Positions 14,987 to 41,124 of a stretch of 64,000 nt of DNA are shown here, piece by piece (within the stretch, counting starts at the first letter, position 1; every line of letters begins with the position of its first letter). The translations under genes were made by a program, and so were the position numbers. The DNA is taken from positions 67,290-131,289 of the forward strand of contig CAZBFO010000004.1 in the NCBI GenBank assembly GCA_964491475.1, given 5' to 3'. Origin of the DNA: an uncultured Gammaproteobacteria bacterium. Its GTDB lineage: Bacteria > Patescibacteriota > Patescibacteriia > SG8-24. The notes under the pieces were generated by a model that made no database searches, had not been told where the DNA came from, and saw only the letters and a program-made list of their open reading frames with translations.

Positions 14987-15832
14987 TCAAAATCGCATTC
15001 CGCGCACGCGTTCCCAATGCCCGTCTTCCGGCAGTCGCAGCAACTCGGACACGCGCGGCGCATACCGCACCTCGATGTGATCGCCCTGCCGGACGTCGGC
15101 AACACGGATGCCGTCCAAGAATAGCGCTGGCGGATGACGATGCCTTTCCGGAATGCCGAGGTTCGGCTCGATGCCGAGCAGGGCGAAACGTAACGAACGA
15201 CCCTCGGCCGAGAGCAGCAAGCCTGCCTGCGGCGCGACGGTGTCATGAATGCCTTTCACGTAGAGCGCGCGCACCGACGGGTCCATGCGCGGCGCATGCA
15301 GATGCACCGCCATCGGCGAGGTGGAACCGATCGCCGAACAGAGGCAGGCACCGGATCCGCGAATGTCCTTTACGAAGGCCGTTTCCTTGCCGCTGACCGA
15401 TTCTACGCGCAATCGCAGCCAGGTCATCGTGCACTCGATGGTGATGTCGTTGACCGCGCGATACGCCTGCTCGCCCCCAGAGGAGCGATGGATGACTTGC
15501 ATTGCGGGAATCGGCATGGGCGACAACCTGCCTTCAATGGCCTTGTCGAGCGTCTCGATGAGACGTTGGCGGTCGCGAACCGTCGTCAGGAAGCCCTCGT
15601 GGCCGAGATTGAACGCGAGAAGGTGCTGTCGGCGCTGTCCGTGAGCTCTCACCGCTTCAAGCAGCGTGCCGTCGCCGCCGAGCACCAGCAGCAGGTCGGC
15701 ATTTTGCGGGTCGCAAACGCGCATATTCGGATGATTTCGGCGCAAATGAGCCGCCAATTTTGCCTGCTCCGCAAGCAGCGCGTCAGTAACGACGCGGGAA
15801 AAGAACGCGTAGGTTTCGTAGTGTTTTCGCAT
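14987..15832 (-). CDS. nadK: NAD kinase
   Basis: GGDGT(L) motif in LLLVLGGDGTLLEAV, NAD kinase length and downstream conserved blocks. Confidence 0.8.
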   Translation of the reverse strand: MRKHYETYAFFSRVVTDALLAEQAKLAAHLRRNHPNMRVCDPQNADLLLVLGGDGTLLEAVRAHGQRRQHLLAFNLGHEGFLTTVRDRQRLIETLDKAIEGRLSPMPIPAMQVIHRSSGGEQAYRAVNDITIECTMTWLRLRVESVSGKETAFVKDIRGSGACLCSAIGSTSPMAVHLHAPRMDPSVRALYVKGIHDTVAPQAGLLLSAEGRSLRFALLGIEPNLGIPERHRHPPALFLDGIRVADVRQGDHIEVRYAPRVSELLRLPEDGHWERVRGMRF

Positions 15833-15879: not shown

Positions 15880-15902
15880 ATTTGTACTTTGAAAGTACAT
15901 TT
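15880..15902. promoter_or_regulatory. operator-like palindrome ATTTGTAC-N7-GTACATTT between nadK and the divergent 15998 gene
   Basis: palindromic core TGTACTTTgAAAGTACA; same half-sites and spacing as the site at 24846-24868. Confidence 0.45.
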
Positions 15903-22940: not shown

Positions 22941-23507
22941 TTACATTGCCGGACCCATCGGAGGATGACGGGTGCCGAACAGGCGAATCAACTCCGCGAA
23001 CTTGTGCAATGCCGCAGTATGCAGCGGGAACGCGAGAGTCTCGTCGCCCTTGAGGATGACCAGCTCCTGGGTCTCGTTCTCCCCCGTTTCGGGGTTGGGC
23101 ACCTGCACCAGTTCCGGCAGCTCCGGCAAGTGCAGGTCGACGATGCCGAAGGTGAGGTGGTGCCGACCGTCGTTGCCGGTCATGGTATCGAACAGGGTGA
23201 CCTGCTCGACGGCGGCGACGATGCCGGTTTCCTCGTGCAGCTCGCGCACCAGCGCCTTCTGCCAGGTTTCGCCGTAGGTGTGGAAGCCGCCTGGCAGTGC
23301 CAGTTCACCTCTCTTCTCCTCCAGGCCCCGGCGCACGCCCAGAATGCCGTCGGCGACGCGCACCAGCGCCACGCTGACCGTGGGCGGGTTGCGGTACGTG
23401 ATGTAGCCGCATGCACCGCACTTGCGCGGCCAGTCGAATTCGCCGTGATCGGTCGCGTAACCGGTACCGCAGCACGAACAGTGCGAGAACGGCTTCGGAT
23501 CCTTCAT
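22941..23507 (-). CDS. NUDIX hydrolase with N-terminal zinc ribbon (NudC-like NADH pyrophosphatase candidate)
   Basis: CxxC...CxxC ribbon (CSCCG...CGACG) followed by Nudix box GGFHTYGETWQKALVRELHEETGI; 10 nt downstream of nadA. Confidence 0.75.
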   Translation of the reverse strand: MKDPKPFSHCSCCGTGYATDHGEFDWPRKCGACGYITYRNPPTVSVALVRVADGILGVRRGLEEKRGELALPGGFHTYGETWQKALVRELHEETGIVAAVEQVTLFDTMTGNDGRHHLTFGIVDLHLPELPELVQVPNPETGENETQELVILKGDETLAFPLHTAALHKFAELIRLFGTRHPPMGPAM

Positions 23508-24845: not shown

Positions 24846-24868
24846 AAATGTACCTTTACAGTACATTT
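24846..24868. promoter_or_regulatory. operator-like palindrome AAATGTAC-N7-GTACATTT in the nadA / regulator divergent region
   Basis: perfect inverted repeat AAATGTAC...GTACATTT ending 14 nt before the regulator ATG. Confidence 0.45.
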
Positions 24869-24881
24869 AACGTTTACCATC

Positions 24882-25607
24882 ATGCCCCTCTCCCCCGCAG
24901 CGCTTTTCGTTCGTGCCGGCCTCACCCGAGACGACGGCCTTGCGTATGCCGTCCTGGCCAAGCATGACGGCATCTCCATCGCCGACATCTGCCGCAAGAT
25001 CGGCCTGCACCGACCGGCCGCGTATCGCGCCTTGGCCCGCCTGGAAAAAGCCGGGCTCCTGCGCAAAACGAAACGCGGAAAACGGTTCATCTACTCCGCC
25101 GCCGATCCGGACAGGCTGGAACGCCTGCTTGCCCGCGCGGACGCGGAAAACGCACGTTCCGCCGAGATGTTCAACACCGTGCCGTCCGGCAACGGCGTCG
25201 TGACCGTGCTGCGCGGCAGCAAAGGGCTCGCGACGGTGCTCGACGACTTGGCACGCACGCTCGGCAAAGACGAAATCTTTTACCGCATCTCGTCGCGCAA
25301 GCCGAGCACCAGCGTCGAGGGCTTCGTGCCGAAGGACTTCCTGCGCACGCGCGACGGCAAAAAATTGCAGCAGTTCGTGCTATGCAACGCCGCGCTCCGC
25401 GCCGCACCGCACAAGAAACGCATCGACGGCCTCTCGAAGGTGGTGCCGGAAGGCGGAGCGCCTTTCGAGTACGACATCGCGCTGGTCATCTACGGCGACA
25501 AAGTCGCCACGGTCGACTACGCCGCAAAACAGGCGGTGGTCGTAAAAAATGCGCGACTGGCCAAGTTCCATATTCGTCTCTTCAAGATGCTTTTTGATCG
25601 GATATAA
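24882..25607 (+). CDS. TrmB-like winged-helix transcriptional regulator (paralog 1)
   Basis: N-terminal wHTH (ISIADICRKIGLHRPAAYRALARLEKAGLL) plus a C-terminal effector-type domain; paralogous in layout to 33041-33823. Confidence 0.6.
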   Translation: MPLSPAALFVRAGLTRDDGLAYAVLAKHDGISIADICRKIGLHRPAAYRALARLEKAGLLRKTKRGKRFIYSAADPDRLERLLARADAENARSAEMFNTVPSGNGVVTVLRGSKGLATVLDDLARTLGKDEIFYRISSRKPSTSVEGFVPKDFLRTRDGKKLQQFVLCNAALRAAPHKKRIDGLSKVVPEGGAPFEYDIALVIYGDKVATVDYAAKQAVVVKNARLAKFHIRLFKMLFDRI

Positions 25608-25648
25608 AAGACCCCCATCATTGATGGAGGCCTGATGAGATGCGCGAC

Positions 25649-25984
25649 CTAACGACGCATGCCCTGCCGGGGCCGCAGCTTTGGCGCGTTCTCGCGAAGC
25701 GTCTTCGCGGCTGCGGCGCGTTCCGGATTCGCCTCGGCCCATTCTTTGTCCGTCGGCAGCGAAACGAAAGGTTCCGGAAGGACGGTCTGGGCGCCGCAAC
25801 AAGGGCACATCATGACCGTCTCGTCGCGGGCCCCGCCGATGTCGTGCGTGTGCTTCTGAAAAAGATCCGCTTTGGTGACGCGGAGCAAGGCTCCGCAGCC
25901 TGTGGGACCGTTGTATTCGGTGCCCGTGCACTCGAACTCTTTGCTCCAGCCATCCTGCTCCCGTCCAGGTCGAACGATTTCCAT
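25649..25984 (-). CDS. small zinc-ribbon protein (WSKE...C...C...CPxCG family, paralog 1)
   Basis: WSKEFEC...GCG...CPCCG motifs shared with 32341-32580 and 32597-32866; SD GGAGGA. Confidence 0.55.
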   Translation of the reverse strand: MEIVRPGREQDGWSKEFECTGTEYNGPTGCGALLRVTKADLFQKHTHDIGGARDETVMMCPCCGAQTVLPEPFVSLPTDKEWAEANPERAAAAKTLRENAPKLRPRQGMRR

Positions 25985-26100
25985 GTTTCCTCCGTGGTCG
26001 GCGTACCGACCCGAGGATGCTGCCAGAAAAAGCCGTTTTTGTCAACGGTGCCTCGTCCGTCGCGGTATAAAAAACCCCCGACGAGCGTCGGAGATTTCGT

Positions 26101-26877
26101 TCAAGCGGTTCGCGGATACAGTTCCTTGAACGCATCGATGATTTCGACTTTGCGGTAGAGCGGCAGCGGCGCCAAGCTGCGCCCCTTGCGGTTGCCGGGC
26201 GCGTTCCACGGGCGGCCCGTGACCATCACGCTCAACACCTTTTCGCCCAGCGGCCGGACGTAGTGCCAAGCGGTCGGATCGACCATCTCGTACTTTTCGC
26301 CGTTGCCGATGACTTTGGCGTTGCCCTTCGGCGGCGCAGGTCCGTCCGATGGCCCGTGTCCGTACGCCGTTTCGTACCAACCGCGGCAGATGCGCATGGC
26401 CGAGGGCCACGGGTGCGGGTGATACAACGGCTCGCTGGCGTAGCAGGGATGAATGACGTGCAGGCACAGCCGACCGTCGCCGTACGGCATCCAGACGCGT
26501 TCCACGTTGGGCTTTTCGTCTGCGATGAGCAGGCTCTCCCACTCGGGAACGTGCAACAGCAACGCCGGCAGCTCGCGTTCGGCCTGTTCGAGCGTCGGCA
26601 GCATGCTGCCGCCGGGCGTGCTTCCCCAAGCGAAGCGGTCGCAGGGATGCTGGCGCGTCTCGACGAAGCGCTTGCAGTTGCGAAGCATCAGCTCCGGGTC
26701 CAGCAAGGTCTCGGCATGGACACCGTCCGGCAACAGGCCGTACAGCTTTTCGTCGTCGATCCAACAGCGGTCGTCGCCGCGCTGGTCGCGGTGGGCGCGG
26801 ATGCCGTGGCGAAGACGCCGCACTTCCTGCCGCAACTTTTCCTTGTTGAGGACCAAAAGGTCGTCGTCTTTGGACAT
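26101..26877 (-). CDS. hypothetical protein, possibly cupin-like
   Basis: 258 aa, W/Y/H/P-rich, HVIHP...E metal-type motif; SD AGGAGG; hairpin terminator CCGACGagCGTCGG downstream. Confidence 0.5.
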   Translation of the reverse strand: MSKDDDLLVLNKEKLRQEVRRLRHGIRAHRDQRGDDRCWIDDEKLYGLLPDGVHAETLLDPELMLRNCKRFVETRQHPCDRFAWGSTPGGSMLPTLEQAERELPALLLHVPEWESLLIADEKPNVERVWMPYGDGRLCLHVIHPCYASEPLYHPHPWPSAMRICRGWYETAYGHGPSDGPAPPKGNAKVIGNGEKYEMVDPTAWHYVRPLGEKVLSVMVTGRPWNAPGNRKGRSLAPLPLYRKVEIIDAFKELYPRTA

Positions 26878-26930
26878 CGTTCCTCCTAGCGCCTTTCGGC
26901 AAGCGCATTGAAGCAGCAGCGCGGGCGACG

Positions 26931-26945
26931 GTCAACGGCGTTGAC
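26931..26945. promoter_or_regulatory. palindrome GTCAACggcGTTGAC in divergent promoter region
   Basis: perfect 6-3-6 inverted repeat between 26877 (minus) and 27013 (plus) starts. Confidence 0.3.
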
Positions 26946-27012
26946 TCGCGTTGCGCGAACGGGTAGGTTGGACCATCGGCAATCGCCGCAACAAGCATAA
27001 GGAGGATGGCCG

Positions 27013-27582
27013 ATGAAGTCAGCCCGTTTGTTCCTTTCGTTCATCGTCGGTGCGGTCGCGCTTGTCATCGCATGCAAGCGCGTTCCCCCACTGCCCGACG
27101 CCGACGGCACCGACATCGTCACGCGCAAACAGCCTGCGGAGTGGAGCATCGTGGAGCGGCCGGCATTGCCGCCGCCCGTGACGCTGAAGGACGGCGGCTG
27201 CGTCCGTCGCGGACCGCTGCCCGACCCGCTGTGCACGCCCGGCAAGGCCAACCCCGGCGTAAAGGCCACGCACATCTGCACGCCGGGATTTTCCAAGAAC
27301 CTGCACGGTGCCACCGACAAAACGAAGCGCAAAGTCTTGCAGATGTACGGCGAGACTTCCGGCGCGGGCGAGATCGACTACCTCATCTCGCTGGAGCTGG
27401 GCGGTTCGACCGATGCCAGCAACCTCTGGCCGGAACGCGCCGAGCCTCGTCCGGGACTGCACGAAAAGAACAAGGCCGAGGAATACTTGCGCCGCCAAGT
27501 CTGTCAGGGACACATGACCCTGGAAGAAGCGCAGCGCCTCATCGCCGCCGACTGGATGGCCGTCTACCGCAGCATGCGGTGA
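27013..27582 (+). CDS. secreted lipoprotein with HNH / His-Me-finger nuclease-like C-terminal motif
   Basis: signal peptide and lipobox LVIAC; block EIDYLISLELGGSTDASNLWPE resembles DUF1524/HNH nuclease cores; SD AAGGAGG. Confidence 0.45.
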   Translation: MKSARLFLSFIVGAVALVIACKRVPPLPDADGTDIVTRKQPAEWSIVERPALPPPVTLKDGGCVRRGPLPDPLCTPGKANPGVKATHICTPGFSKNLHGATDKTKRKVLQMYGETSGAGEIDYLISLELGGSTDASNLWPERAEPRPGLHEKNKAEEYLRRQVCQGHMTLEEAQRLIAADWMAVYRSMR

Positions 27583-27754
27583 CAACTCCGAAACGCCCGC
27601 CGCTTGGCGGGTTTTTTCTTTGCCGCGGCTCCCGTTACCAATCAAGGTCTCTGACTCCCCACCACCTTTGACGAAAGCACGGATTTACGCTGATATGAGC
27701 ACCGAAGCAACGGTGCTTCGCCCGTACATTCACACCCACATTCGGAGAATGCTC

Positions 27755-30328
27755 ATGAAGAAGTCCGGCTCCCTGATTCGGGCGACACTGCTTACCGCTG
27801 CCATCGGTTTTCCCCTCGGCTGCGGCAGCCACGACGCCGATCCGCCTGCGGCCGTCTTCCCCGACGCCATTACGCTCGGCTCGTCCGACGCCAAGGTGGT
27901 CCTGACGCTCCGTCCCCACTTCGGCATGTCGGTCATCAAGAACGACGGCTCCGCAGTGCTGCGGACGCTGGCGGACGATCACGCGGTGCAGGGCGACAGC
28001 CTCGGCGCGTACGTGCCGGTCGGCGCCACGCATCGTGACGTCGAACTGACCTCCACGCTGCTCGAAGGGTTCGACCACGTGTCGGACACGGATCAGCCGT
28101 GGCTGCGCGCGACGAACGTCGTCTCGGCCACGTCGGATGCGGCCAGCGCGCACGTCGTACTGGCCGACCCGAAGGAATCGGGTACCAAGCTGGCTATCGA
28201 AGTCAGCGTGAACGGCACCGCCGTGGACGTCAGCGTGACTCCCGTCGCCAATCGCGGCGACGCCAGCAAGGCGCTGAACCTGTTCGGCCAGTCCTTCGCC
28301 ACCGACCCCGACGAGCAGTTCGTCGGTTTCGGCGAGCACGAGAACGCCGTGAACCATCACGGCGAGCGGTTGAAGAGCTGGGTGGAAGAAGGCGGACTCG
28401 GCGGCGGCGAAAAGGCGCCCCCGAGCGAGTTCAATCCCGCCCCCAACGGCCCGGGCATGACGCACGTGCCGATGCCGTTCTTCATCTCGTCGCACGGCTA
28501 CGGCCTGTGGATCCGCACCAGCTTTCGCACCGATTTTTCGCTCGGCAGCGACGATCCCGGCGCAATCCGCATCCAAGCGGAGGAGCCGCAGCTGCGCTAC
28601 CGCGTCTACGTGCGCGGTACGCCGCGCGAGGTGCTGGCCGACTTCACCGCCGACAACGGACGGGCACGGCTGCCCGCACCGTGGGTCTTCGGACCGCGGC
28701 GGCGCATGGACACGAACAAGGTCATCAAGCAGCCCGGCGGCGACGTTTTGGAAGCGCAGCTGATGCGCGACCGCAGCGTGCCGACCACCTGCGCCGACGA
28801 CACCGTCCACTTCCTGCCGAACAACGGTTCGGCAGGACGCGAGGCCGAGCTCAAGGCCTGGACCGACAAGCTGCACTCTCTCGGCTACAAGGCCATCGGC
28901 TACTTCAACGGTCATGTCTCCGCCGAAAATCCCGACGCAGCCGCGTTGCTGAACGACGGACGCTCCAAAGGCGTCTTCGTGAAGCTCGACGACGGCACGG
29001 AATCGCTGGTGCGGATCAACTCCGCCGGCTGGCAGCAAGTGGCCACCCTCGACCTGACCAACCCGGCCGCCGTGACCTGGTTCGAAGGCCGCATGGCCGG
29101 CGCATTGGCGCTCGGCTACGACGGCTGGATGCTGGACTTCGGCGAATACCTGCCGCAACGTGCCAGGCTGACCAACGGCATGAGCGGATGGGAGGCCCAC
29201 AACCTCTATCCGATCTTCCTGCAGACGGCCACCACCGACTACCTGCGGCGCGTACGGGGAGACGACTTCCTGATCTTCGCGCGCAGCGGCTACGTCGGCT
29301 CGCAGGCGCACACCACCGTGGTGTGGTCCGGCGATCCGTCCGCCAGCTTCGACAACGCCCGCGGCCTTCCGGCCATGGTGCGCTCCGGAATGAACGCCGG
29401 GCTGTCCGGCATCCCCTTCTGGGGCTCGGACATCAGCGGCTTCACCTGCATCAGCGGCGACCCCGCCGACAAGGAAGTGTACCTGCGTTGGGCCGAGTTC
29501 GGCGCGCTGTCCTCGGACATGCACGACGAGAACGCCTGCGCCGGAAAGCCCGCCAGTGCGCCCGACAAATGGACGCTCTGGAGCGACGACGAAACGGTCA
29601 CCGTTTACGGCCGTTACGCCTCGCTGCACACGCGCCTGTTCCCCTACCTGTACGCCGCTGCCGACGAGTCCGTTGCCACGGGCATGCCGGTCATCCGCCA
29701 TCCGCTGCTGATGACCCCGGAACAACCGGACGCCTGGAAGGCCGAGCATTCCTACTGGTTCGGACCGTCGCTCTACGTCGCACCGGTCGTCCATCGAGGC
29801 GACCGCAGTCGGACCTTCTGGCTTCCCCCGGCAACGTGGTTCGACTGGTGGACCTCCACGGCAACCACCGGCGGCACAAAAGTGACGCGTGACGCGCCGC
29901 TCGACGTGCTCCCGCTGTACTTCAAAGCCGGCAGCCTCATCGTGATGCTCCCGGAAGAAGTGCAGACGCTGGCGCCGTCTGACGATCCCAAGGTCGTCGA
30001 CATGTACGACCGCGACGGCTCGTACGTCGTCCGCTCCGGTCTCACCGCCGCGGAACCGAACGCCGAAGCGAAGATACATGACGGCTCCACCTTCACCGCA
30101 GCGGTGCGGCAGGGCCCTCTCACCCTGCCGGCAGACGTCCCCCTGGCCGCGACCGACGCCGAACTGCACGACTGCGCCCGCTGCGGCAGAATCGACATCC
30201 TGCCGGACGGCACCACGCGAGTCCGCGTGACCGCCGACGGCGCATCGCTGCAAGCAGGCGCGCTGACGCTGTCTGCCGACCGACCAGGCAAGGCACTGCG
30301 CGTCCGCTGGGACGTGCTGGTGCACTGA
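27755..30328 (+). CDS. glycoside hydrolase family 31 (alpha-glucosidase/alpha-xylosidase-like) lipoprotein
   Basis: GH31 catalytic region (WMLDFGEY ... GDPSASFDNARG ... FWGSDISGF); ATG 27755 with GGAGA SD gives signal peptide with lipobox PLGC. Confidence 0.8.
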   Translation: MKKSGSLIRATLLTAAIGFPLGCGSHDADPPAAVFPDAITLGSSDAKVVLTLRPHFGMSVIKNDGSAVLRTLADDHAVQGDSLGAYVPVGATHRDVELTSTLLEGFDHVSDTDQPWLRATNVVSATSDAASAHVVLADPKESGTKLAIEVSVNGTAVDVSVTPVANRGDASKALNLFGQSFATDPDEQFVGFGEHENAVNHHGERLKSWVEEGGLGGGEKAPPSEFNPAPNGPGMTHVPMPFFISSHGYGLWIRTSFRTDFSLGSDDPGAIRIQAEEPQLRYRVYVRGTPREVLADFTADNGRARLPAPWVFGPRRRMDTNKVIKQPGGDVLEAQLMRDRSVPTTCADDTVHFLPNNGSAGREAELKAWTDKLHSLGYKAIGYFNGHVSAENPDAAALLNDGRSKGVFVKLDDGTESLVRINSAGWQQVATLDLTNPAAVTWFEGRMAGALALGYDGWMLDFGEYLPQRARLTNGMSGWEAHNLYPIFLQTATTDYLRRVRGDDFLIFARSGYVGSQAHTTVVWSGDPSASFDNARGLPAMVRSGMNAGLSGIPFWGSDISGFTCISGDPADKEVYLRWAEFGALSSDMHDENACAGKPASAPDKWTLWSDDETVTVYGRYASLHTRLFPYLYAAADESVATGMPVIRHPLLMTPEQPDAWKAEHSYWFGPSLYVAPVVHRGDRSRTFWLPPATWFDWWTSTATTGGTKVTRDAPLDVLPLYFKAGSLIVMLPEEVQTLAPSDDPKVVDMYDRDGSYVVRSGLTAAEPNAEAKIHDGSTFTAAVRQGPLTLPADVPLAATDAELHDCARCGRIDILPDGTTRVRVTADGASLQAGALTLSADRPGKALRVRWDVLVH

Positions 30329-30455
30329 ACGCAACGGCTCCGCATTCGCGGGGCCGTTTTTTATAGGCCGTCGCAACGAAAAGCGCATGCCCACCTACAT
30401 CATCCGACCGAGACCTTGGCAGAAACGGCCGTTGAGTACGGTATACTGCATCCGT

Positions 30456-31724
30456 ATGACCGCCCTCCGACGCGTAATCATCGCCGCCATTGTCTTTTTT
30501 GCTCCGATTTGCGCTTTTGCCGCTGCTCCGGGCGATCTGGTCAAGATTCCGTGTCCTGGCGGCGAAGCCGCCGACCACCCTTGCCGCGCGGTCTACTACT
30601 ACGGCGGCGACGGTCGCCGACACGCCTTCCCCAACGAACGCAACTACTTCAGCTGGTACCCGAACTTCAGCGCAGTAAAAATCGTCAGTGAGAGCGGCAT
30701 GGCCGCAATCCCCCTGGGCGAGAACGTCACCTACCGTCCCGGCAGCACCTTGGTGAAATTTCCGTCCGAAGGGAAGGTGTATGCAGTCGCCTCCGACCGC
30801 GCCCTTCGCTGGGTCACAAGCGAGTCCATCGCGGTCGACATTGCCGGACTGAACTGGACCAAGAAGGTCGACGACATCTCCGAAACTTTTTTCGGCGACT
30901 ACTCCTTTGGAGCCAACATCACCGCCGCCTCCGGCTATAACGCCTCTTCCGAGCTCGCCGGCGCGCCCAACATCGACGCCGCGCTCCCCGATTCGTACCG
31001 TACGCTCAAGGTCGACACCGACCGCGGAACGTTCGACGTACAGGTGATTTCGTTGCGCAAAGACCGTTTCTCGATGATTACCGCTGTTGCCGCGCCCACG
31101 CCTGACTGCATCGACAATTGCGCCACCGAACCCCTGGCCGACTACGCCGCTGCCGCCGGCGCGCTGATCGGCGTCCACGGCACGTACTTCTGCCCGCCCG
31201 ACTACGCCGACTGCCAAGGCAAAACCAATACCTTCAACCCACCGGTATTCCGCACCTCCGACCGCGTCATGTTCCAACCGTTCGGCCTGCAAGTGCACAA
31301 GGGCCCGATGATCGCCTACATGTCCGACGGAAAATACGTCTTCCTGCGCTTGGCCACGGACAGCGGCGGCTCCGTTTCCGCCCTTGAGTCGCACCAATCG
31401 GCGCTGCTCGTCGCTGCCATTTCGAATTACCCCGCATTGATGCAGGGCGGCCAAGTCGTGGTCGATAACGACCCCTTGCTGGAAGACATCCAGCGCACCA
31501 AAAAATCAACACGCGCCGGCATCGGCTTGGATGAAAAACGCCTGCTCATCGTCGTGGCCAAGAACGCCACGGTCCCCGACCTCGCCTCGGTATTTGCCGC
31601 CCTCGGTGCCAAAGACGCGCTGAACTTGGACGGCGGCGGCTCCACCGCGCTCATGTATGGCGGGGCGTATAAGGCCGGCCCGGGCCGCACCCTGCCTAAT
31701 GCCGTGCTTTTTAAGGCGCGCTGA
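30456..31724 (+). CDS. phosphodiester glycosidase family protein (DUF2233/NAGPA-like), secreted
   Basis: C-terminal LNLDGGGSTALMYGG block; ATG 30456 gives a signal peptide; TATACT -10 sits only 9 nt upstream, suggesting a leaderless mRNA. Confidence 0.7.
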   Translation: MTALRRVIIAAIVFFAPICAFAAAPGDLVKIPCPGGEAADHPCRAVYYYGGDGRRHAFPNERNYFSWYPNFSAVKIVSESGMAAIPLGENVTYRPGSTLVKFPSEGKVYAVASDRALRWVTSESIAVDIAGLNWTKKVDDISETFFGDYSFGANITAASGYNASSELAGAPNIDAALPDSYRTLKVDTDRGTFDVQVISLRKDRFSMITAVAAPTPDCIDNCATEPLADYAAAAGALIGVHGTYFCPPDYADCQGKTNTFNPPVFRTSDRVMFQPFGLQVHKGPMIAYMSDGKYVFLRLATDSGGSVSALESHQSALLVAAISNYPALMQGGQVVVDNDPLLEDIQRTKKSTRAGIGLDEKRLLIVVAKNATVPDLASVFAALGAKDALNLDGGGSTALMYGGAYKAGPGRTLPNAVLFKAR

Positions 31725-31795
31725 CCCCTTTGACGCCGCTGCCGTTTTGAGCTAGCCTGAACAAAGCCCATTTAAAGGGCACAAAGGAGTTCCCG

Positions 31796-32269
31796 TTGAA
31801 CAAATCACCCGCTGAACGACAAGCCGCCGTAACCGGCGGCCTAGCGCAGGGCCGAAAGCTCGGTGTCCTGCTGCGCGCCGGCAAGAGCGCCAAACGCATC
31901 CGCATGCTCGGTGAGCTGCAGGAAAATGCCTCGTTCCACGAGAGCGAGAACCTCATCCGGAGCCTGGCCACCTGCGCCGACGCTTCGCTCGGCGACGACG
32001 CCGATCAAAGCGGCGCTATCCGTGCCGCCGCCACCGGTTTCCGCGACGTCCTCGTGGCGTTCCCGCCCAAGGACAAGCGCGACTGGAGGGAGATCAACGA
32101 TGCGCTCAAGGTGCCGGCGTCGGCCAAGAAGGCCGACGAGGACGAGGAGCCTGTCACGCTCCGTGCACCGGCCCATCACGTGCTCCCCACGCCGTCTTCC
32201 GAGGACCACGACTACGGCGACGACGAAAACGTCCGCTACCGCTACCTCGACGAAAAAGACGGCAGCTAG
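31796..32269 (+). CDS. hypothetical acidic protein
   Basis: TTG start with SD AAAGGAG; followed by a terminator. Confidence 0.4.
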   Translation: MNKSPAERQAAVTGGLAQGRKLGVLLRAGKSAKRIRMLGELQENASFHESENLIRSLATCADASLGDDADQSGAIRAAATGFRDVLVAFPPKDKRDWREINDALKVPASAKKADEDEEPVTLRAPAHHVLPTPSSEDHDYGDDENVRYRYLDEKDGS

Positions 32270-32276
32270 CCGCAGT

Positions 32277-32304
32277 AAACCGCTCCGCTTGGGGCGGTTT
32301 TTTC
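32277..32304 (+). terminator. Rho-independent terminator
   Basis: AAACCGC...GCGGTTT stem followed by TTTTTC. Confidence 0.5.
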
Positions 32305-32307
32305 TAT

Positions 32308-32333
32308 GAAAAAGCCCCCGAAACATCGGGGGC
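32308..32333 (-). terminator. Rho-independent terminator for the zinc-ribbon gene pair
   Basis: GCCCCCGaaacatCGGGGGC hairpin, T-run on the minus strand. Confidence 0.5.
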
Positions 32334-32340
32334 AAAGGGA

Positions 32341-32580
32341 TCAGTCCCAAGCGCTGGAATACTTTCGTTTCCGGTCGACCTCGTCACGCACGCGCTTGGA
32401 AAGATCGCCGCTCTTGATCTCGATGCGCTCGCCGCAAAGGGCGCAGAGACAGTAGAAGCCGGTGCCGTAGTCGACGGGCTTCACGTCTTTCTCCTCCACG
32501 AGGAGCACGCCTTTGCAGGTGCCGCACTCGTGTTCCTTCGACCACGGGTTCTTCCAGTTGCCTTCCTTGATGATCTTCAT
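32341..32580 (-). CDS. small zinc-ribbon protein (paralog 3)
   Basis: NPWSKEHECGTCKG...CLCALCGERIE; same motif order as the other two paralogs. Confidence 0.55.
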   Translation of the reverse strand: MKIIKEGNWKNPWSKEHECGTCKGVLLVEEKDVKPVDYGTGFYCLCALCGERIEIKSGDLSKRVRDEVDRKRKYSSAWD

Positions 32581-32596
32581 GACTTCCTCCTTCGCA

Positions 32597-32866
32597 TCAC
32601 TTGCGGCTCTTGGTTCTATCCTTCACGCATTCGAGCGGCCCGCTGCCGATCTGCCATTCGGGATACAGCTTCTGACCGCAGGCCGGACAGATGACGTGGA
32701 AGGTCCAATCGCCTTCGCAGTCCCGATGGCCCTTGATGTCATCGAGCGTGATTTCGATGAGGGCGAAACAGCCGTCTACGCGATGCGGACCGGCAAAACC
32801 GCTGACCGGATGCGCGCAGCGGATGACCGCCGACCATTCCTTCTTGCCTTCGACGATTTTTGCCAT
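32597..32866 (-). CDS. small zinc-ribbon protein (paralog 2)
   Basis: KEWSAVIRC...DGC...HVICPACGQKLYPE; tandem with paralog 3. Confidence 0.55.
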   Translation of the reverse strand: MAKIVEGKKEWSAVIRCAHPVSGFAGPHRVDGCFALIEITLDDIKGHRDCEGDWTFHVICPACGQKLYPEWQIGSGPLECVKDRTKSRK

Positions 32867-32968
32867 GACTGACTCCTCGGTTGTAATGGTCTTGGCGCGG
32901 GACGTTCCCGCGACAAAGCCATCATTCCAGATTGATACGAACTTTGCCGTACTTTTTTACATTTTCAC

Positions 32969-32996
32969 TTGCTAAAAAGTGACTTTTTGCTATACT
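32969..32996 (+). promoter_or_regulatory. promoter TTGCTA-N16-TATACT with embedded perfect palindrome AAAAAGTgACTTTTT (32974-32988)
   Basis: a 15-nt perfect palindrome exactly fills the spacer of the promoter for the TrmB-like regulator at 33041, which is a typical autoregulatory operator layout. Confidence 0.45.
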
Positions 32997-33040
32997 AAGC
33001 CAAGTAAAGGATTTCCATTACTACGTCATATATCGTAATT

Positions 33041-33823
33041 ATGAACATTCCTCATCTGACCGCCGCGCGGAAAAAAGAGATTGCCGAAGTGCTCACCCGG
33101 TTCGGGCTCGATGCCAAGGAACAGGCCATGTACCTGGCATTGCTGCCCATGGGCACCACGACGCTGCGGCCGCTGGCGCAGGCCTCGGGATTCCAGCTGA
33201 CCACCGCGCAATCCGTTGCCGCGCGTCTTGCCGATGCGGGCCTTGTCAACGTGACCAAGCGCGGCGGGCGGCAGTCGTACGAGGCGCACGATCCCGAAAC
33301 GCTGTCGCGCATCCTTGAACGCCAGGCCGAAGAAGTCGCAGGCATCATCCCGGTTCTGCGCAAGATGAAAAACGCCGAATCGGCGCCGGCGGCCCTGCGC
33401 GTCTATTGGCGCGAACGCCGGACGGACATCTTTCACGAAGCGCTGGCCGCCAAGGAAAAACTGGTGTTCGAAATCGTCGCCGCGCGGGACATCCAGGAAG
33501 TGCTCGGAGAAAAGTTCCACTTCACCCGCCGCCGAATGCAGGCCGGCGTGAAACTGCGAAGCCTGCGCGTCGAGTCGCAGGAAATCAAAAAATATTCCCG
33601 AGCCAGGCATGCGACCGAGCTGCGGGAAGCCAAGTTCTTGCCGCGCGAGCTGACCTTTCGCTGCAGCATCATGTGCTGGGACGACACCGTCGCATTTTTC
33701 GCCACGGAGAGGGAAAAGCTTGCCTGGACGGTGCGTTCGGCATCGATGGCCGAAACGGTCAGGCAGCTGTTCGCCCTGCTTTGGGAAGTCAGCCGAAAGA
33801 TGGAAAATGACGTTGCGACCTAA
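33041..33823 (+). CDS. TrmB-like winged-helix transcriptional regulator (paralog 2)
   Basis: N-terminal wHTH plus effector-type domain; same layout as 24882-25607. Confidence 0.6.
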   Translation: MNIPHLTAARKKEIAEVLTRFGLDAKEQAMYLALLPMGTTTLRPLAQASGFQLTTAQSVAARLADAGLVNVTKRGGRQSYEAHDPETLSRILERQAEEVAGIIPVLRKMKNAESAPAALRVYWRERRTDIFHEALAAKEKLVFEIVAARDIQEVLGEKFHFTRRRMQAGVKLRSLRVESQEIKKYSRARHATELREAKFLPRELTFRCSIMCWDDTVAFFATEREKLAWTVRSASMAETVRQLFALLWEVSRKMENDVAT

Positions 33824-33858
33824 AGGCCTTTGGCACGAAATGCGGTTGCCTTTATACT

Positions 33859-34410
33859 GTGAGGGATATGTACCTCAACGTCGGCGACAAGGCGCCGCGC
33901 TTCTCCGTGACGGATGTCCGGGGCAGGGCCGTAAACCTCAAGGATTTCGCAGGCAAGCACCTGCTGCTTTGCTTTTACCGGTACGCAGGCTGCCCCTTTT
34001 GCAACTTGAGCCTCAAGGAGCTGGTGGCCTTCGTAAACAAGCGACGAAAGAATGACCTGGCCGTCGTCGCGTTTTTCCAGTCACCGCGGGAAAGCGTCCT
34101 GGCGCAGCCCGGCAAGCTCTCCCCGCCCTTCCCGCTGGTTGCCGACCCCACTCGATCGGTTTACGACAGATACGGCATCGGGACATCGTACATGGGGGCC
34201 ATCCGCAGCATCAGCAAGACTCTTCGTTGGGTCCGAGCAAACAACGAAGGGTTCCCGCAGGGGCCGATTGACGGCAGCTTTTACCTGATGCCGGCGCAGT
34301 TCCTCGTTTCGCCATCGCAAAACATAGAGCTGGCGCACTATTGGAACACGTTCGGGGACGAAACGCCCTTCGCGGAGATCGAGGCGATCCTGAAGAAACG
34401 ACGTCCATAG
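33859..34410 (+). CDS. peroxiredoxin-like redoxin (AhpC/TSA/Bcp family)
   Basis: thioredoxin-fold with CPFC in LLCFYRYAGCPFCNLSLKEL. Confidence 0.7.
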   Translation: MRDMYLNVGDKAPRFSVTDVRGRAVNLKDFAGKHLLLCFYRYAGCPFCNLSLKELVAFVNKRRKNDLAVVAFFQSPRESVLAQPGKLSPPFPLVADPTRSVYDRYGIGTSYMGAIRSISKTLRWVRANNEGFPQGPIDGSFYLMPAQFLVSPSQNIELAHYWNTFGDETPFAEIEAILKKRRP

Positions 34411-34475
34411 CGGATCGAGCGGAAAATTGACCTCGGCTGGCCCAGCGGCTACCGTGACAACCAAGGAGTAAGGGC

Positions 34476-34892
34476 ATGAAAATCCTTCGTTGGCTCGTTT
34501 TGCTCCCCGTCGTCGGCTTGCTCCTCTGCGTCCTTTTGGCGCGGTATGACGCGGGCGCGGCGACGGCTGAACCGACGGCAGACCTGCCGCGTCTCGATGA
34601 CGCCTGCCATCCCGGCAAGCCGACGCTGGTCGTCTTTACTGCCGACTGGTGCGGCTACTGCAAAGTCCTCAAGGAAAAGACCTTGGCGGACCCTGCGGTC
34701 AAAGCGCGTCTCAAGAACTACGTCATCGTGTTCGTCAACGTGGAGAAGAACCGCGGCCTTGCCCGCATCGCCGGCGTATCGGCGCTCCCCACCACCTTCG
34801 CGCTGTCGAAGAGCTGCGAAACCAAGGGTAAGCTCGAGGGCGCTTACCCGCCCGAGGACTTCCTTAAGTGGCTCGACGAAGCCGAAAAATGA
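34476..34892 (+). CDS. thioredoxin-like protein, secreted or membrane-anchored
   Basis: N-terminal hydrophobic segment; WCGYC active-site motif (TADWCGYCKVLKE). Confidence 0.7.
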   Translation: MKILRWLVLLPVVGLLLCVLLARYDAGAATAEPTADLPRLDDACHPGKPTLVVFTADWCGYCKVLKEKTLADPAVKARLKNYVIVFVNVEKNRGLARIAGVSALPTTFALSKSCETKGKLEGAYPPEDFLKWLDEAEK

Positions 34893-34943
34893 AGCGCCTG
34901 CCGGTCAGGCATGACCGGCTTTTTTATTGAAAAAGCCGCGCTG

Positions 34944-38732: not shown

Positions 38733-39182
38733 ATGCCGAACGCAAAGCAGAAGCACCGCGTCGATGACGACCTGATCCTGTTCCCCGAAGCGGAACAGCA
38801 GGTTTCCGGCTCGCATGCGGGTTCGCGCACCGAAGACGGCTGGTTCAATGACGACGAGGGCCGCCTGGCCATCGACATCAGCGAGACCGACAAGGAGATC
38901 GTCATCCTGTCGCCCATTGCCGGAGTGAAACCGGAAGACCTGGAAGTGTTCATGCACAACGACATGCTGACGATCCGCGGCAATCGTCATCACGACCTGG
39001 GTACGGTGCCCGGAGGCAAGCACGTCGTCCGCGAATGCCACTGGGGCGCGTTTTCGCGTTCCGTCATCCTGCCCATCGAAATCGATCCGGACGCCATCAC
39101 CGCTACCATCAAGGACGGCGTGCTGACGGTGCGCCTGCCCAAGACGGAGCGCTCGCGCCGCATCGCCGTCAGGGAGCTGTAG
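38733..39182 (+). CDS. Hsp20/alpha-crystallin family small heat-shock protein
   Basis: ACD-type blocks including the GVLTVRLPK signature. Confidence 0.8.
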   Translation: MPNAKQKHRVDDDLILFPEAEQQVSGSHAGSRTEDGWFNDDEGRLAIDISETDKEIVILSPIAGVKPEDLEVFMHNDMLTIRGNRHHDLGTVPGGKHVVRECHWGAFSRSVILPIEIDPDAITATIKDGVLTVRLPKTERSRRIAVREL

Positions 39183-39222
39183 CGCCCTTGAACAAGCGCG
39201 GGCTTCGTGAAAAGCTACACCC

Positions 39223-41124
39223 ATGACCGAGAAACGCGACAAGCGCGGAAGGACGCGGTCACCGTTTGTCCTACGGGCGGTGGCACTTTTTTTATTGGCT
39301 GCCGTCTTTACCGGCATGGCCGCCTACGGCGCGCTTGCCACAGTCAAACAGGACCAGATCATCCAAGGGGTGTCCATCCACGGCATCAGCATCGGCGGCC
39401 GGACCGCCGACGAGGCTTTTGCCGAAATAAAAAAGCAGGTGGAGGGCCTGCGCCTGCATTTCTCCCTCAACGGAGAGACCGTCGAAATCGATCCTGACGC
39501 CGGTGACGTGCCGATCGCCAAATACGACGTCGATACGGCGGTGAGGAAAGCGCTGGAGGTGGGACGGTCGGGCAATCCCGTGATTGCCATGTACGAGAGG
39601 GTGCGCACCGCGCTGGTCGGCACCTCGATCGACCTGCCGCACGCACTCAACGCCACGGCACTTCGCTACGCCCTGGAAAAACGCTTCAGCGACACCATCT
39701 CGCTCGGGAGAGGCGCACGTTTCGCGATTGCCATCGACGGCAACGGCGCGCCCGACGTGACCATCGAACCGGAGCGTGACGGCGCCATGGTCAACTTCGA
39801 CGCCGTGACCCGCGCCACCGATAACCGCCTTTCCGCGCTTTCCGACGAAACCATTGTCATTCCCGCCAAGCGCGACAAGCCGAAGCTGACCAAGGAAGGC
39901 ATTTCGCCGCTGACCCAATCGGTGCTCACGGCCGTGAAGCGCGCGCCGTTCACCCTTATAGCCAAAACCGAGACCTGGACCGTGTCGCGCAGCACCTTTG
40001 CCGACTGGATTGTCGCCGTTCCGGCGGACAACGACGGCGCCCCCGTGCTTTCGCTCGACCGCGACAAGGTACGCGCGTTCATCGAGTCCCGCGCCGGCGG
40101 AATCAGGACCGAACCGAAGAGCGCCGTCTTCGAAGAAAAGGACGGCAAAGTGGTGAATTTCGAGCCCAGCGTCGACGGCGAGACGGTCGATCCGGGCGCG
40201 TCGGCCATCGTCATCGGCGTGCTGGCCTTCGGCACCGATGAGGTGAAACCGATCACCCTGCCGCTAATGCCCGTCCATCCCGACATCGACACCGAGAGGT
40301 CCAACCCGTACGGCATCAAGGAGATCATCGGCGTTGGCGCGACCAACTTCCGCGGCAGCCCCAAGAACCGTCGTCACAACATCGCGGTCGGCGCTGCCAG
40401 CGTGAACGGCACGCTCATTGCGCCCGACGAGGAGTTTTCGATGCTCAAGACGCTCGGCACCATCGACGCCACCACCGGCTACCTGGAGGAGCTGGTCATC
40501 AAGGAAAACAAAACCACGCCGGAGTTCGGCGGCGGCCTCTGCCAGATCGGCTCCACCGCTTTCCGTGCCACGCTCGACTCGGGCTTGCCTGTGACCATGC
40601 GCCAGAATCATTCCTATCGCGTCCCCTATTACGAGCGTGACGGCGACGGCAATGACATCGGTCCGGGCAAAGATGCCACCATCTACGACCCCGCGCCGGA
40701 CTACCGTTTCATCAACGACACCGGCCACGAAATCCTCATCTGGACCAAAATCACCGGCAACAAGCTGACCTTCACCTTTTGGGGCGTGAAGGACGGCCGC
40801 ACCTCCGCACAGACCAAATCGCGCGTTTACAACATCGTGCAGCCCCCGCCCAAGAAGGTCATCCAGACCAGCGAACTCAAGATCGGCGAGGAAAAATGCA
40901 CCGAACACGCCCACGTGGGCAGCGAGGCGGTCTTCGATTACACGGTGGTCTATGCAGACGGCGCCAAGAAGGAGAAGGAGTTCCACAGCCACTACAAACC
41001 GTGGCAAGAAGTCTGCCTGATCGGCGTCGACCCCTCGACGCTCCCGCCCGGCGTCACTTCGCAGGAACTGATCACCTCTCCCGACTCGGCGGCAGCAGAC
41101 ATGCCGACGACGACCAAACCGTAG
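39223..41124 (+). CDS. VanW family protein (YoaR-like) with N-terminal TM anchor
   Basis: TM anchor, peptidoglycan-binding-type N-terminal domain, VanW core (GGGLCQIGSTAFRATLDSGLPV ... HSYRVPYY). Confidence 0.8.
   Translation: MTEKRDKRGRTRSPFVLRAVALFLLAAVFTGMAAYGALATVKQDQIIQGVSIHGISIGGRTADEAFAEIKKQVEGLRLHFSLNGETVEIDPDAGDVPIAKYDVDTAVRKALEVGRSGNPVIAMYERVRTALVGTSIDLPHALNATALRYALEKRFSDTISLGRGARFAIAIDGNGAPDVTIEPERDGAMVNFDAVTRATDNRLSALSDETIVIPAKRDKPKLTKEGISPLTQSVLTAVKRAPFTLIAKTETWTVSRSTFADWIVAVPADNDGAPVLSLDRDKVRAFIESRAGGIRTEPKSAVFEEKDGKVVNFEPSVDGETVDPGASAIVIGVLAFGTDEVKPITLPLMPVHPDIDTERSNPYGIKEIIGVGATNFRGSPKNRRHNIAVGAASVNGTLIAPDEEFSMLKTLGTIDATTGYLEELVIKENKTTPEFGGGLCQIGSTAFRATLDSGLPVTMRQNHSYRVPYYERDGDGNDIGPGKDATIYDPAPDYRFINDTGHEILIWTKITGNKLTFTFWGVKDGRTSAQTKSRVYNIVQPPPKKVIQTSELKIGEEKCTEHAHVGSEAVFDYTVVYADGAKKEKEFHSHYKPWQEVCLIGVDPSTLPPGVTSQELITSPDSAAADMPTTTKP

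Follow-up and report, generated by a model that had tools for sequence, protein, structure and literature searches.

The 64,000-nucleotide stretch of DNA analysed here (contig CAZBFO010000004.1, positions 67,290 to 131,289, from an uncultured bacterium of the GTDB lineage Patescibacteriota; hereafter the window) carries three genes, named A, B and C, whose products belong to a large, unnamed and uncharacterised family of predicted four-Cys zinc-ribbon proteins of Patescibacteria and large phages. Genes B and C form a tandem array divergent from the gene of a TrmB-family regulator (regulator 2), and in 13 distinct loci orthologs of this regulator stand head to head with an array of the same kind. 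The conserved partner of the array is a Nudix hydrolase, both as a neighbouring gene and as a fusion partner, which had been missed in an earlier interpretation of the window made from its letters only (hereafter the sequence-only reading). What is new here is the zinc-ribbon family, the conserved regulon in bacteria of the candidate phyla radiation (CPR) and the link to Nudix, from which we infer the function.

All three genes lie on the minus strand and encode proteins of 79–111 amino acid residues, just as the sequence-only reading had located them: gene A (subfamily A; 111 residues) at 25649-25984, gene B (subfamily B; 89 residues) at 32597-32866 and gene C (subfamily C; 79 residues) at 32341-32580. 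Gene B is the first gene of the B-C operon, gene C starts 16 bp past it, and the operon ends with an intrinsic-terminator-like hairpin (32314-32333, minus strand; an 8-bp stem with 7 GC pairs, then TTTTT). The paralogy of the three proteins, proposed earlier from shared motifs, was confirmed by BLASTP, by a leave-out hidden Markov model (HMM) and by profile-profile comparison; the alternative, that they would not align significantly and share their Cys spacing by chance, was checked and did not occur. Pairwise BLASTP gave E-values of 5e-5 (A-C), 2e-4 (A-B) and 3e-3 (B-C). The leave-out HMM, built from 37 family members with the window proteins excluded, matched only B (2.7e-37), A (2e-21) and C (9e-20) among the 416 open reading frames (ORFs) of at least 50 residues in the window, and comparison of the subfamily profiles using hhalign gave 99.4% for C-A (E 1.8e-21), 94.7% for C-B (E 5.9e-8) and 86.2% for B-A (E 4.9e-6). 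An alignment of A, B and C used as the query against 5.8 billion proteins returned 40 proteins, which fall into three clear subfamilies with one window protein in each. The 4 Cys are invariant across these 40 aligned sequences and the second knuckle is CxxC in all of them. The main difference among the subfamilies is the loop inserted in the first zinc knuckle, which is C-x2-C up to C-x5-C in subfamily C, C-x10-C with a near-invariant Gly-rich loop (CTG.GNGGGGC) in subfamily A, and C-x15-C ending in RVDGCF in subfamily B. Of the motif set described in the sequence-only reading, the Trp, the two Cys pairs and the C-x-x-C-G are real, but the spacing of the first Cys pair differs among A, B and C. 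In addition, the family has an N-terminal strand, MK[IV][IL]K.G, and a conserved Trp. The type C proteins share the consensus tail ...DLP.R[VI]K..LD.KRKYSS..W(R)D, present as KRKYSSAWD at the C-terminus of the product of window gene C, which looks like a docking peptide. The proteins have acidic cores, modestly basic tails and a near-neutral isoelectric point (pI 6.7–7.7), which fits protein contacts better than bulk nucleic-acid binding.

The family is large. An HMM search of 1.84 billion cluster representatives (50% identity) found 1,299 family proteins at E<=1e-3, of which nearly all have 75–140 residues with the domain beginning at residue 1; at E<=1e-10 the number is 245. The type-A profile alone found 1,133 proteins. 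Members with names belong to Candidatus Uhrbacteria, to the Parcubacteria group and to the Patescibacteria group. Type A is also present in 23 IMG/VR contigs, mostly of 100–450 kb and with GC contents from 28% to 70%, as a single gene or in tandem pairs. Among cultured phages, Sphingobium phage Lacusarx is the only one with a homolog (type-A query), which is annotated as hypothetical, and independently the best viral match of the B model in Foldseek was the uncharacterised homolog of the same phage (probability 0.96). No Pfam or NCBIfam model matches A, B or C (Pfam at E<=0.1), and no Pfam model was found for 40 type-A members. The best-matching curated family is the phage protein family phrog_2834 of PHROGs, matched by 23 of the 40 members; however, these matches are weak and partial (best E 4.7e-5), and phrog_2834 is without functional annotation. 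Two knuckles with two Cys ligands each are given by the invariant Cys of the 40 sequences, and the AlphaFold models of A and B (pLDDT, the predicted local distance difference test, 81.0 and 83.9, respectively) show 4–5 strands flanking the Cys residues and helices toward the C-terminus, as expected for knuckles borne on beta-hairpins of a small sheet. Using these two models, Foldseek found no solved structure below E 0.4, and sequence comparison with PDB gave knuckle-level matches only (best E 0.0026). Rubredoxin proper (PF00301) was considered and rejected, as none of the three proteins matches it in Pfam at E<=0.1 and rubredoxins in PDB appear only at E 0.9; nor is rubredoxin among the best 25 of the 31 Pfam families returned for 40 type-A members at E<=1. 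PADLOC gave zero matches for four zinc-ribbon proteins, only generic helix-turn-helix models for the regulators, and the candidate single-gene model PDC-S07 for the Nudix protein. In the literature no relevant paper was found on TrmB-type regulators in Patescibacteria, on small zinc-finger proteins together with Nudix, or on this zinc-ribbon family.

Regulator 2 (33041-33823, plus strand; 260 residues) is the conserved partner of the array. Both regulators adjoining zinc-ribbon genes in the window are TrmB-like, as had been stated, with PF01978 scores of 35.3 bits for regulator 2 and 39.8 bits for regulator 1 (cutoff 25.6); they are homologous, but their paralogy is distant, with 31% identity over the N-terminal 110 residues (E 1e-9). 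The family of regulator 2 has 321 homologs in Patescibacteria at E<=1e-10, and its profile aligns to residues 6-149 of TrmB from P. furiosus (3QPH; E 1.8e-6). Like archaeal TrmB and TrmBL2, the regulator has the N-terminal winged helix and the next helix and a predicted palindromic operator with 5-bp half-sites, and its length is similar to that of TrmBL2. In contrast to them, it is bacterial (Patescibacteria), and no Pfam match to the sugar-binding C-terminal effector domain was found past its N-terminal domain, the PDB alignment stopping at residue 157; with the NCBIfam models for TrmB and TrmBL1 it reaches 19.5 and 24.6 bits, far short of their cutoffs (600 and 650).

Loci were gathered around family members and regulator orthologs, and each was scanned by HMMs for the zinc ribbon, the 260-residue regulator and the module Nudix. 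The regulator orthologs that stand head to head with a zinc-ribbon array are those of the window, L044, L001, L003, L005, L007, L011, L012, L014, L015, L016, L017 and L046; they have 255–263 residues and 45–90% identity, conserved over the full length, the distance between regulator and array is 158–220 bp (174 bp in the window), and the other flanking genes vary. The arrays, which occur in Patescibacteria with genomes of the Uhrbacteria/Parcubacteria type, are tandem and variable, with 1–5 copies and B usually first. Read from the regulator side, they consist of B, C in the window; A, C in L044; B, A, Nudix in L001 and L012; B, A, C, Nudix in L003; B, A, A-like, A and an A-Nudix fusion in L005; B, Nudix in L007, L015 and L017; A-like, C in L011; C, B in L014; B and one further copy before the contig end in L016; and four copies and Nudix in L046. 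Thus the small regulated module around an uncharacterised zinc-ribbon family that the sequence-only reading had proposed is supported by the pairing with regulator 2 in 13 independent loci, and of the neighbourhood of TrmB-like regulator plus redoxin genes that it had suggested looking for in relatives, the regulator is conserved but the redoxins are not. Window B is 56–72% identical to the B-types of the family alignment, window C is 80% identical to its ortholog in L044, and window A is 58% identical to its ortholog in L018. In L044 (3002-3514) a type A gene lies beside the regulator where the window (32341-32866) has B, and the second gene is the 80% identical C; with regulators that are 90% identical, this difference in gene content points to a rapid exchange of the array paralogs. 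L016 and L017 are metagenome-assembled genomes labelled ‘uncultured Gammaproteobacteria’ and ‘Candidatus Saccharibacteria’, respectively, which could mean either a wider range of the module or mis-binning.

The intergenic region between regulator 2 and gene B contains the likely control elements. Alignment of the orthologous intergenic regions revealed a conserved -35 element, an extended -10 element and, upstream of the regulator start, the palindrome TACGA-N6-TCGTA, which is present with 0–1 mismatch in all 13 loci. In the window the promoter-like site of regulator 2 (TTGCTA-16-TATACT with TG extension) is at 32969-32996 on the plus strand, and the operator-like palindrome O1, TACGTCATATATCGTA, is at 33022-33037, ending 3 nt before the ATG of the regulator; a second copy, O2, TACGAACTTTGCCGTA, is on the promoter side of gene B (32936-32951). 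Relative to the called start, the palindrome begins at -19 in 10 of the 13 loci, and at -16, -27 and -34 in L016, L014 and L044, where the start calls are uncertain. The exact sequence TACGA-N6-TCGTA occurs once in each of the module loci collected earlier, always directly upstream of the regulator start, and among the three one-mismatch copies in the 64 kb of the window, where 0.46 are expected, two are inside the 174-bp intergenic region. The density of half-sites in these intergenic regions is 4 times that in the rest of the loci, and other loci have an extra half-site at -84 or -94, between the divergent promoters. Taken together, TACGA-N6-TCGTA is the predicted binding site, and hence the putative operator, of regulator 2. 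The perfect 15-nt palindrome that the sequence-only reading had found in the promoter spacer of regulator 2 does exist (AAAAAGTGACTTTTT, 32974-32988); as an operator it was rejected because it is not conserved, being absent from most orthologous spacers, even from that of the 90% identical relative L044. The palindrome in front of the regulator ends 3–4 nt before the ATG (33019-33043 in the window, and likewise in orthologous loci), which leaves no space for a Shine-Dalgarno sequence, and as RNA it could fold into a 5-bp hairpin beside the start codon. On the other side, the predicted 5' leader of gene B contains an imperfect 17-bp inverted repeat (32886-32922, minus strand), and some orthologous leaders have, as judged by eye, hairpins of different sequence at the same place. 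A scan of the window with Rfam found one tRNA and nothing else, so the hairpin ahead of gene B does not correspond to a known riboswitch.

In 8 of the 13 loci (L001, L003, L005, L007, L012, L015, L017 and L046) the array is directly followed by a Nudix gene, and PF00293 was called at the module Nudix genes of L001, L003, L005 and L007. Moreover, the two kinds of protein are found as fusions: type A zinc ribbons are N-terminal to Nudix in P0137 and in L005 (7176-7874), a type C zinc ribbon is fused to a Nudix domain at the C-terminus in P0097, and the type B fusion P0063 carries a degenerate Nudix-like domain recognised by weak similarity (E 0.001). Type A is furthermore fused to NTPase_I-T, an ITPase/XTPase-type domain, in P0155 and P0178. 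The Nudix box G-x5-E-x7-REUxEExGU is intact in an alignment of four module Nudix proteins. These proteins are nearest to the ADP-ribose (ADPR) pyrophosphatase domain of NadM-Nudix and to an ADPR-responsive repressor family (E 1e-16 to 4e-19), with all NCBIfam matches below the full-length cutoffs, and by this similarity the module Nudix is ADP-ribose-pyrophosphatase-like, with ADP-ribose as its candidate substrate. Ten long family members were scanned for further fusion partners; no recognised DNA-binding domain was found, and in 3 of the 10 the C-terminal region has no Pfam match. In two loci, L011 (2498-4553) and L045 (6795-8834), the regulator is flanked by an operon for phosphoribosyl pyrophosphate (PRPP) synthetase, NTPase_I-T and phosphoribosyltransferase, in which the NTPase_I-T is the same domain as that fused to the type A zinc ribbons.

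Downstream of regulator 2 on the same strand there are, as described in the sequence-only reading, a CxxC peroxiredoxin-like gene followed by a CGYC thioredoxin-like gene. The first (33859-34410, plus strand) encodes an AhpC/TSA-fold protein (PF00578, 70.4 bits, cutoff 26) whose motif CPFC differs from the usual context of the peroxidatic Cys and which scores below the cutoffs of the named subfamilies (NCBIfam ‘SelL-related redox protein’, 81.6 bits against 120; BCP, 42 against 140). The second (34476-34892, plus strand) encodes a thioredoxin-like protein (PF13098, 58.4 bits, and PF00085, 43.9 bits, both above cutoff; motif WCGYC) with a hydrophobic N-terminus, which suggests that it may be exported; a terminator-like site follows at 34900-34919. 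This pair had been thought to accompany both regulators, but it is found at the second locus only. Furthermore, both genes are lineage-specific neighbours. Using tblastn with the two window proteins, no homolog was found in L001-L020; Pfam calls gave neither protein in L045 and L046; and L044 has the thioredoxin gene directly after the regulator (73% identity) without that of AhpC. In L001, L012, L015 and L016 the gene for HSP20 lies within about 10 bp of the regulator, followed by that for VanW, and in the window and L044 the HSP20-VanW pair (38733-41124, plus strand, in the window) is 4.9–5.4 kb downstream of the regulator, separated from it by a block that comprises the thioredoxin gene (in the window together with that of AhpC), the genes for a response regulator and a histidine kinase, and a 310-residue gene. 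Since HSP20-VanW is next to the regulator elsewhere, the thioredoxin/AhpC genes with the two-component genes look like a lineage-specific insertion into an older regulator-HSP20-VanW arrangement. The AhpC gene also has a strong promoter-like site of its own (33830-33858, TTGGCA-17-TATACT, 10 of 12 matches). Together with the lack of conservation across the loci, this speaks against the redox- or metal-responsive module that had been proposed. The presence of HSP20 or of thioredoxin/AhpC in the regulator operon hints at a stress theme, though a clade-specific one. The AhpC promoter-like site ends exactly at the called GTG start; translation may actually begin at the ATG at 33868, in which case the leader would be very short or absent.

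The first locus is organized differently. Regulator 1 (24882-25607, plus strand; 241 residues) is adjacent to gene A, as regulator 2 is to gene B, so that each zinc-ribbon locus does adjoin a regulator as the sequence-only reading had it, but regulator 1 and gene A are convergent, with their stop codons 41 bp apart and a terminator-like hairpin between them (25633-25609). On its other side regulator 1 is divergent from a nadA-Nudix gene pair, and the 92-bp intergenic region contains an exact palindrome, ATGTAC-N7-GTACAT (24848-24866), of which the only other near copy in the window (15882-15900, 1 mismatch) lies between the gene for NAD kinase (14987-15832, minus strand) and a 312-residue gene. 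With the palindrome at nadA-Nudix and upstream of NAD kinase, regulator 1 looks like a regulator of NAD metabolism, and it more likely controls nadA-Nudix and NAD kinase than gene A; as controller of gene A it was rejected, the genes being convergent and the palindrome recurring upstream of NAD kinase and not of A. The Nudix hydrolase downstream of nadA, the gene for quinolinate synthase, which it directly follows (22941-23507, minus strand; PF00293), carries at its N-terminus a classical ribbon like that of NudC (CxxC-x17-CxxC), which is unrelated to the zinc-ribbon family studied here. Its best NCBIfam matches are NadM-Nudix and NAD diphosphatase, and, being weakly similar to the module Nudix (E 2e-7 and 2e-6), it is possibly the counterpart of that enzyme in a displaced position. 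The gene next to A on its upstream side (26101-26877, minus strand) encodes a 258-residue protein without Pfam match and has a terminator of its own. This pair is kept in L018, where the gene for the 258-residue protein is at 1-468, with 86% identity for the 258-residue protein and 58% for A. A relative of the 258-residue protein in L001 (9041-9577; 39% identity, E 8e-22) immediately follows the module Nudix and matches phrog_4786 ‘cysteine dioxygenase’, a cupin-type phage family, weakly at 1e-5; this cupin-like protein possibly belongs to the module in some genomes. Gene A, the 258-residue gene and the Nudix gene lie within 4 kb, A being 6.6 kb from B-C and Nudix 2 kb further. The first locus is thus best understood as a distal part of the same module, displaced from the rest, and not as a second regulator-linked locus.

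Considering these arrangements, we tentatively assume that the zinc-ribbon proteins are accessory or adaptor modules for nucleotide pyrophosphatases under the control of regulator 2, a model that we regard as plausible and rate at somewhat less than an even chance. According to it, a dimer of regulator 2 would bind TACGA-N6-TCGTA between its own promoter and start codon and repress its own operon, and via the palindrome and the extra half-sites between the promoters it would also control the divergent array. As for the zinc-ribbon proteins, they would be interaction modules stabilised by zinc and would act as accessory, targeting or regulatory subunits of Nudix and ITPase-like nucleotide-diphosphate hydrolases, not as redox proteins. 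In the genome of the window the module would be fragmented, with B and C beside regulator 2, A and the cupin-like gene elsewhere, and Nudix next to nadA. A more far-reaching version, in which the array and Nudix form an unrecognised system of CPR bacteria and large phages whose targets are molecules derived from NAD or ADP-ribose (ADPR signals, perhaps, or NAD-capped RNA), with A, B and C as interchangeable specificity or sensor subunits and the TrmB-like repressor releasing the operon on stress or infection, is in our estimation rather improbable. Several observations weigh against the adaptor model. The link between zinc ribbon and Nudix is drawn from gene adjacency and fusions; 5 of the 13 arrays are without an adjacent Nudix gene (in L016 the contig ends about 250 bp past the array); and 22 of 23 phage loci have no match to the module-Nudix profile within 5 kb, the remaining one giving a weak match, although this profile is narrow, since in Lacusarx a gene annotated as RNA pyrophosphohydrolase lies at 4 kb from that of the zinc ribbon. 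Most of the loci were found via zinc-ribbon genes, so the locus count is biased; of three loci found via the regulator two have the array, and the regulator ortholog of L045 is without any. A full second operator exists only in the window and L044, and control of the array therefore rests mainly on the divergent arrangement. Finally, it is from the four invariant Cys that the family is predicted to bind zinc.

Three other explanations have to be compared with the adaptor model. The zinc-ribbon proteins could be transcription factors of small size, or could bind RNA polymerase or nucleic acids, in which case the Nudix link would concern RNA 5' ends, for example the removal of NAD or Np4A caps; NudC is itself a decapping Nudix enzyme with a zinc motif. 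The family is abundant in phage contigs of 100–450 kb, as single genes or tandem pairs among small early-type genes, two of its members are labelled ‘Elf1’ by the Joint Genome Institute (JGI), the weak sequence matches in PDB are to zinc ribbons of RNA polymerase subunits and of ribosomal proteins (E 0.2–0.8), and a role of this type has been predicted for the zinc-ribbon expansions of jumbo phages (PMC7824862). However, the cores are acidic and the pI is near neutral, all identifiable fusion partners are enzymes, with no recognised DNA-binding domain fused in the ten long members scanned, and Foldseek gave no significant fold match to ribbons of RNA polymerase or transcription factors, and hence we consider nucleic-acid binding unlikely, while giving it some weight. 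A redox or metal function, the explanation of the sequence-only reading, would make the proteins redox switches (thiol or zinc) or metal responders, under common regulation with peroxiredoxin and thioredoxin in a module for oxidative or metal stress. It draws on the four conserved Cys, the AhpC-like and thioredoxin-like genes after the regulator in the window, the thioredoxin gene in L044, HSP20 as another stress protein after the regulator in four loci, and a thioredoxin-2 gene 1.1 kb from the zinc-ribbon gene of Lacusarx. But the other module loci have no AhpC or thioredoxin homolog (tblastn against L001-L020; Pfam calls for L045 and L046), AhpC is missing from L044 and has its own promoter-like site in the window, there is no Pfam match to the rubredoxin, Hsp33 or anti-sigma zinc families, and the stress theme belongs to the operon of the regulator itself and not to the zinc-ribbon proteins, all of which makes this explanation very improbable.

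The third possibility is a phage-host conflict module, either a defence or a domesticated counter-defence, in which the zinc-ribbon paralogs would act as sensors or decoys and Nudix would destroy NAD- or ADPR-derived signals. This would agree with the different copy numbers and subfamily contents of the loci, with A and C in L044 against B and C in the window in spite of the 90% identical regulators, and with the fast divergence of type A (58%, compared to 86% for the neighbouring 258-residue gene). Homologs are also common in phages, one of the phage contigs (L009) has a zinc-ribbon gene near a NadM-Nudix-like gene and one for ADP-ribosylglycohydrolase, and the module Nudix is of the ADPR type. 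On the contrary, PADLOC does not match the zinc-ribbon proteins and matches Nudix to a candidate single-gene model only, type B is more conserved than the regulator in the same loci (56–72% against 45–55%), and the loci lie among housekeeping genes, with no integrase or mobile-element gene in the Pfam calls of those loci that have gene calls. We therefore think it doubtful that conflict with phages is the function of the array, and keep the adaptor model as the working one.

Among the known systems, the zinc ribbon of NudC (zf-NADH-PPase, Pfam Nudix_N_2) is similar in that a zinc module with four Cys and a Nudix catalytic domain are joined in one protein, as they are here in P0137, P0097 and L005. 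However, no sequence relation to it is detectable, the fusion proteins match Pfam only at NUDIX itself, and the proteins studied here are mostly free-standing, encoded in multi-copy arrays, and have a long insert in the first knuckle in A (Gly-rich) or B (RVDGCF). The LysW-type carrier proteins are likewise small 4-Cys ribbons with a flexible C-terminal tail ending in aromatic and acidic residues, comparable to the end ...SS.W(R)D of type C, and there is a weak sequence match in PDB to 5k2m_E (E 0.005); but this match covers the CxxC knuckle only, genes for LysX/ArgX-type ligases are not found nearby, and A and B are without the tail motif. Jumbo phages have lineage-specific expansions of zinc ribbons, one case being Bacillus phage G with about 35 copies (PMC7824862). 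These resemble the present family as small free-standing ribbons with several paralogs, common in large phages and without assigned function, while the present family is also chromosomal in Patescibacteria, linked to a repressor and has a Nudix partner; the comparison with the phage G proteins is by description only. CPR/Patescibacteria have small genomes in which most regulators and small proteins have yet to be studied, and here a concrete regulon is put forward, with a regulator, a likely operator and a target array. In addition, a zinc-ribbon family of about 1,300 clusters without a Pfam or NCBIfam model or a solved structure is defined and tied by fusions to Nudix and ITPase-like hydrolases, and a tempting but unsupported redox annotation is removed. 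As phages of jumbo size share the family, finding its function in the bacteria would also give it for the phages, and vice versa.

Two phage neighbourhoods are of note. In Lacusarx (KY629563.1, 98304-108540) the homolog LAV_00162 lies within a long run of small hypothetical genes, with an ‘RNA pyrophosphohydrolase’ (Nudix) gene upstream and the thioredoxin-2 gene downstream in the same run. In the phage-like contig L009 (2720-8456) the type A gene is near genes for a NadM-like adenylyltransferase-Nudix fusion, the ADP-ribosylglycohydrolase, Cpn10 and a DNA methylase.

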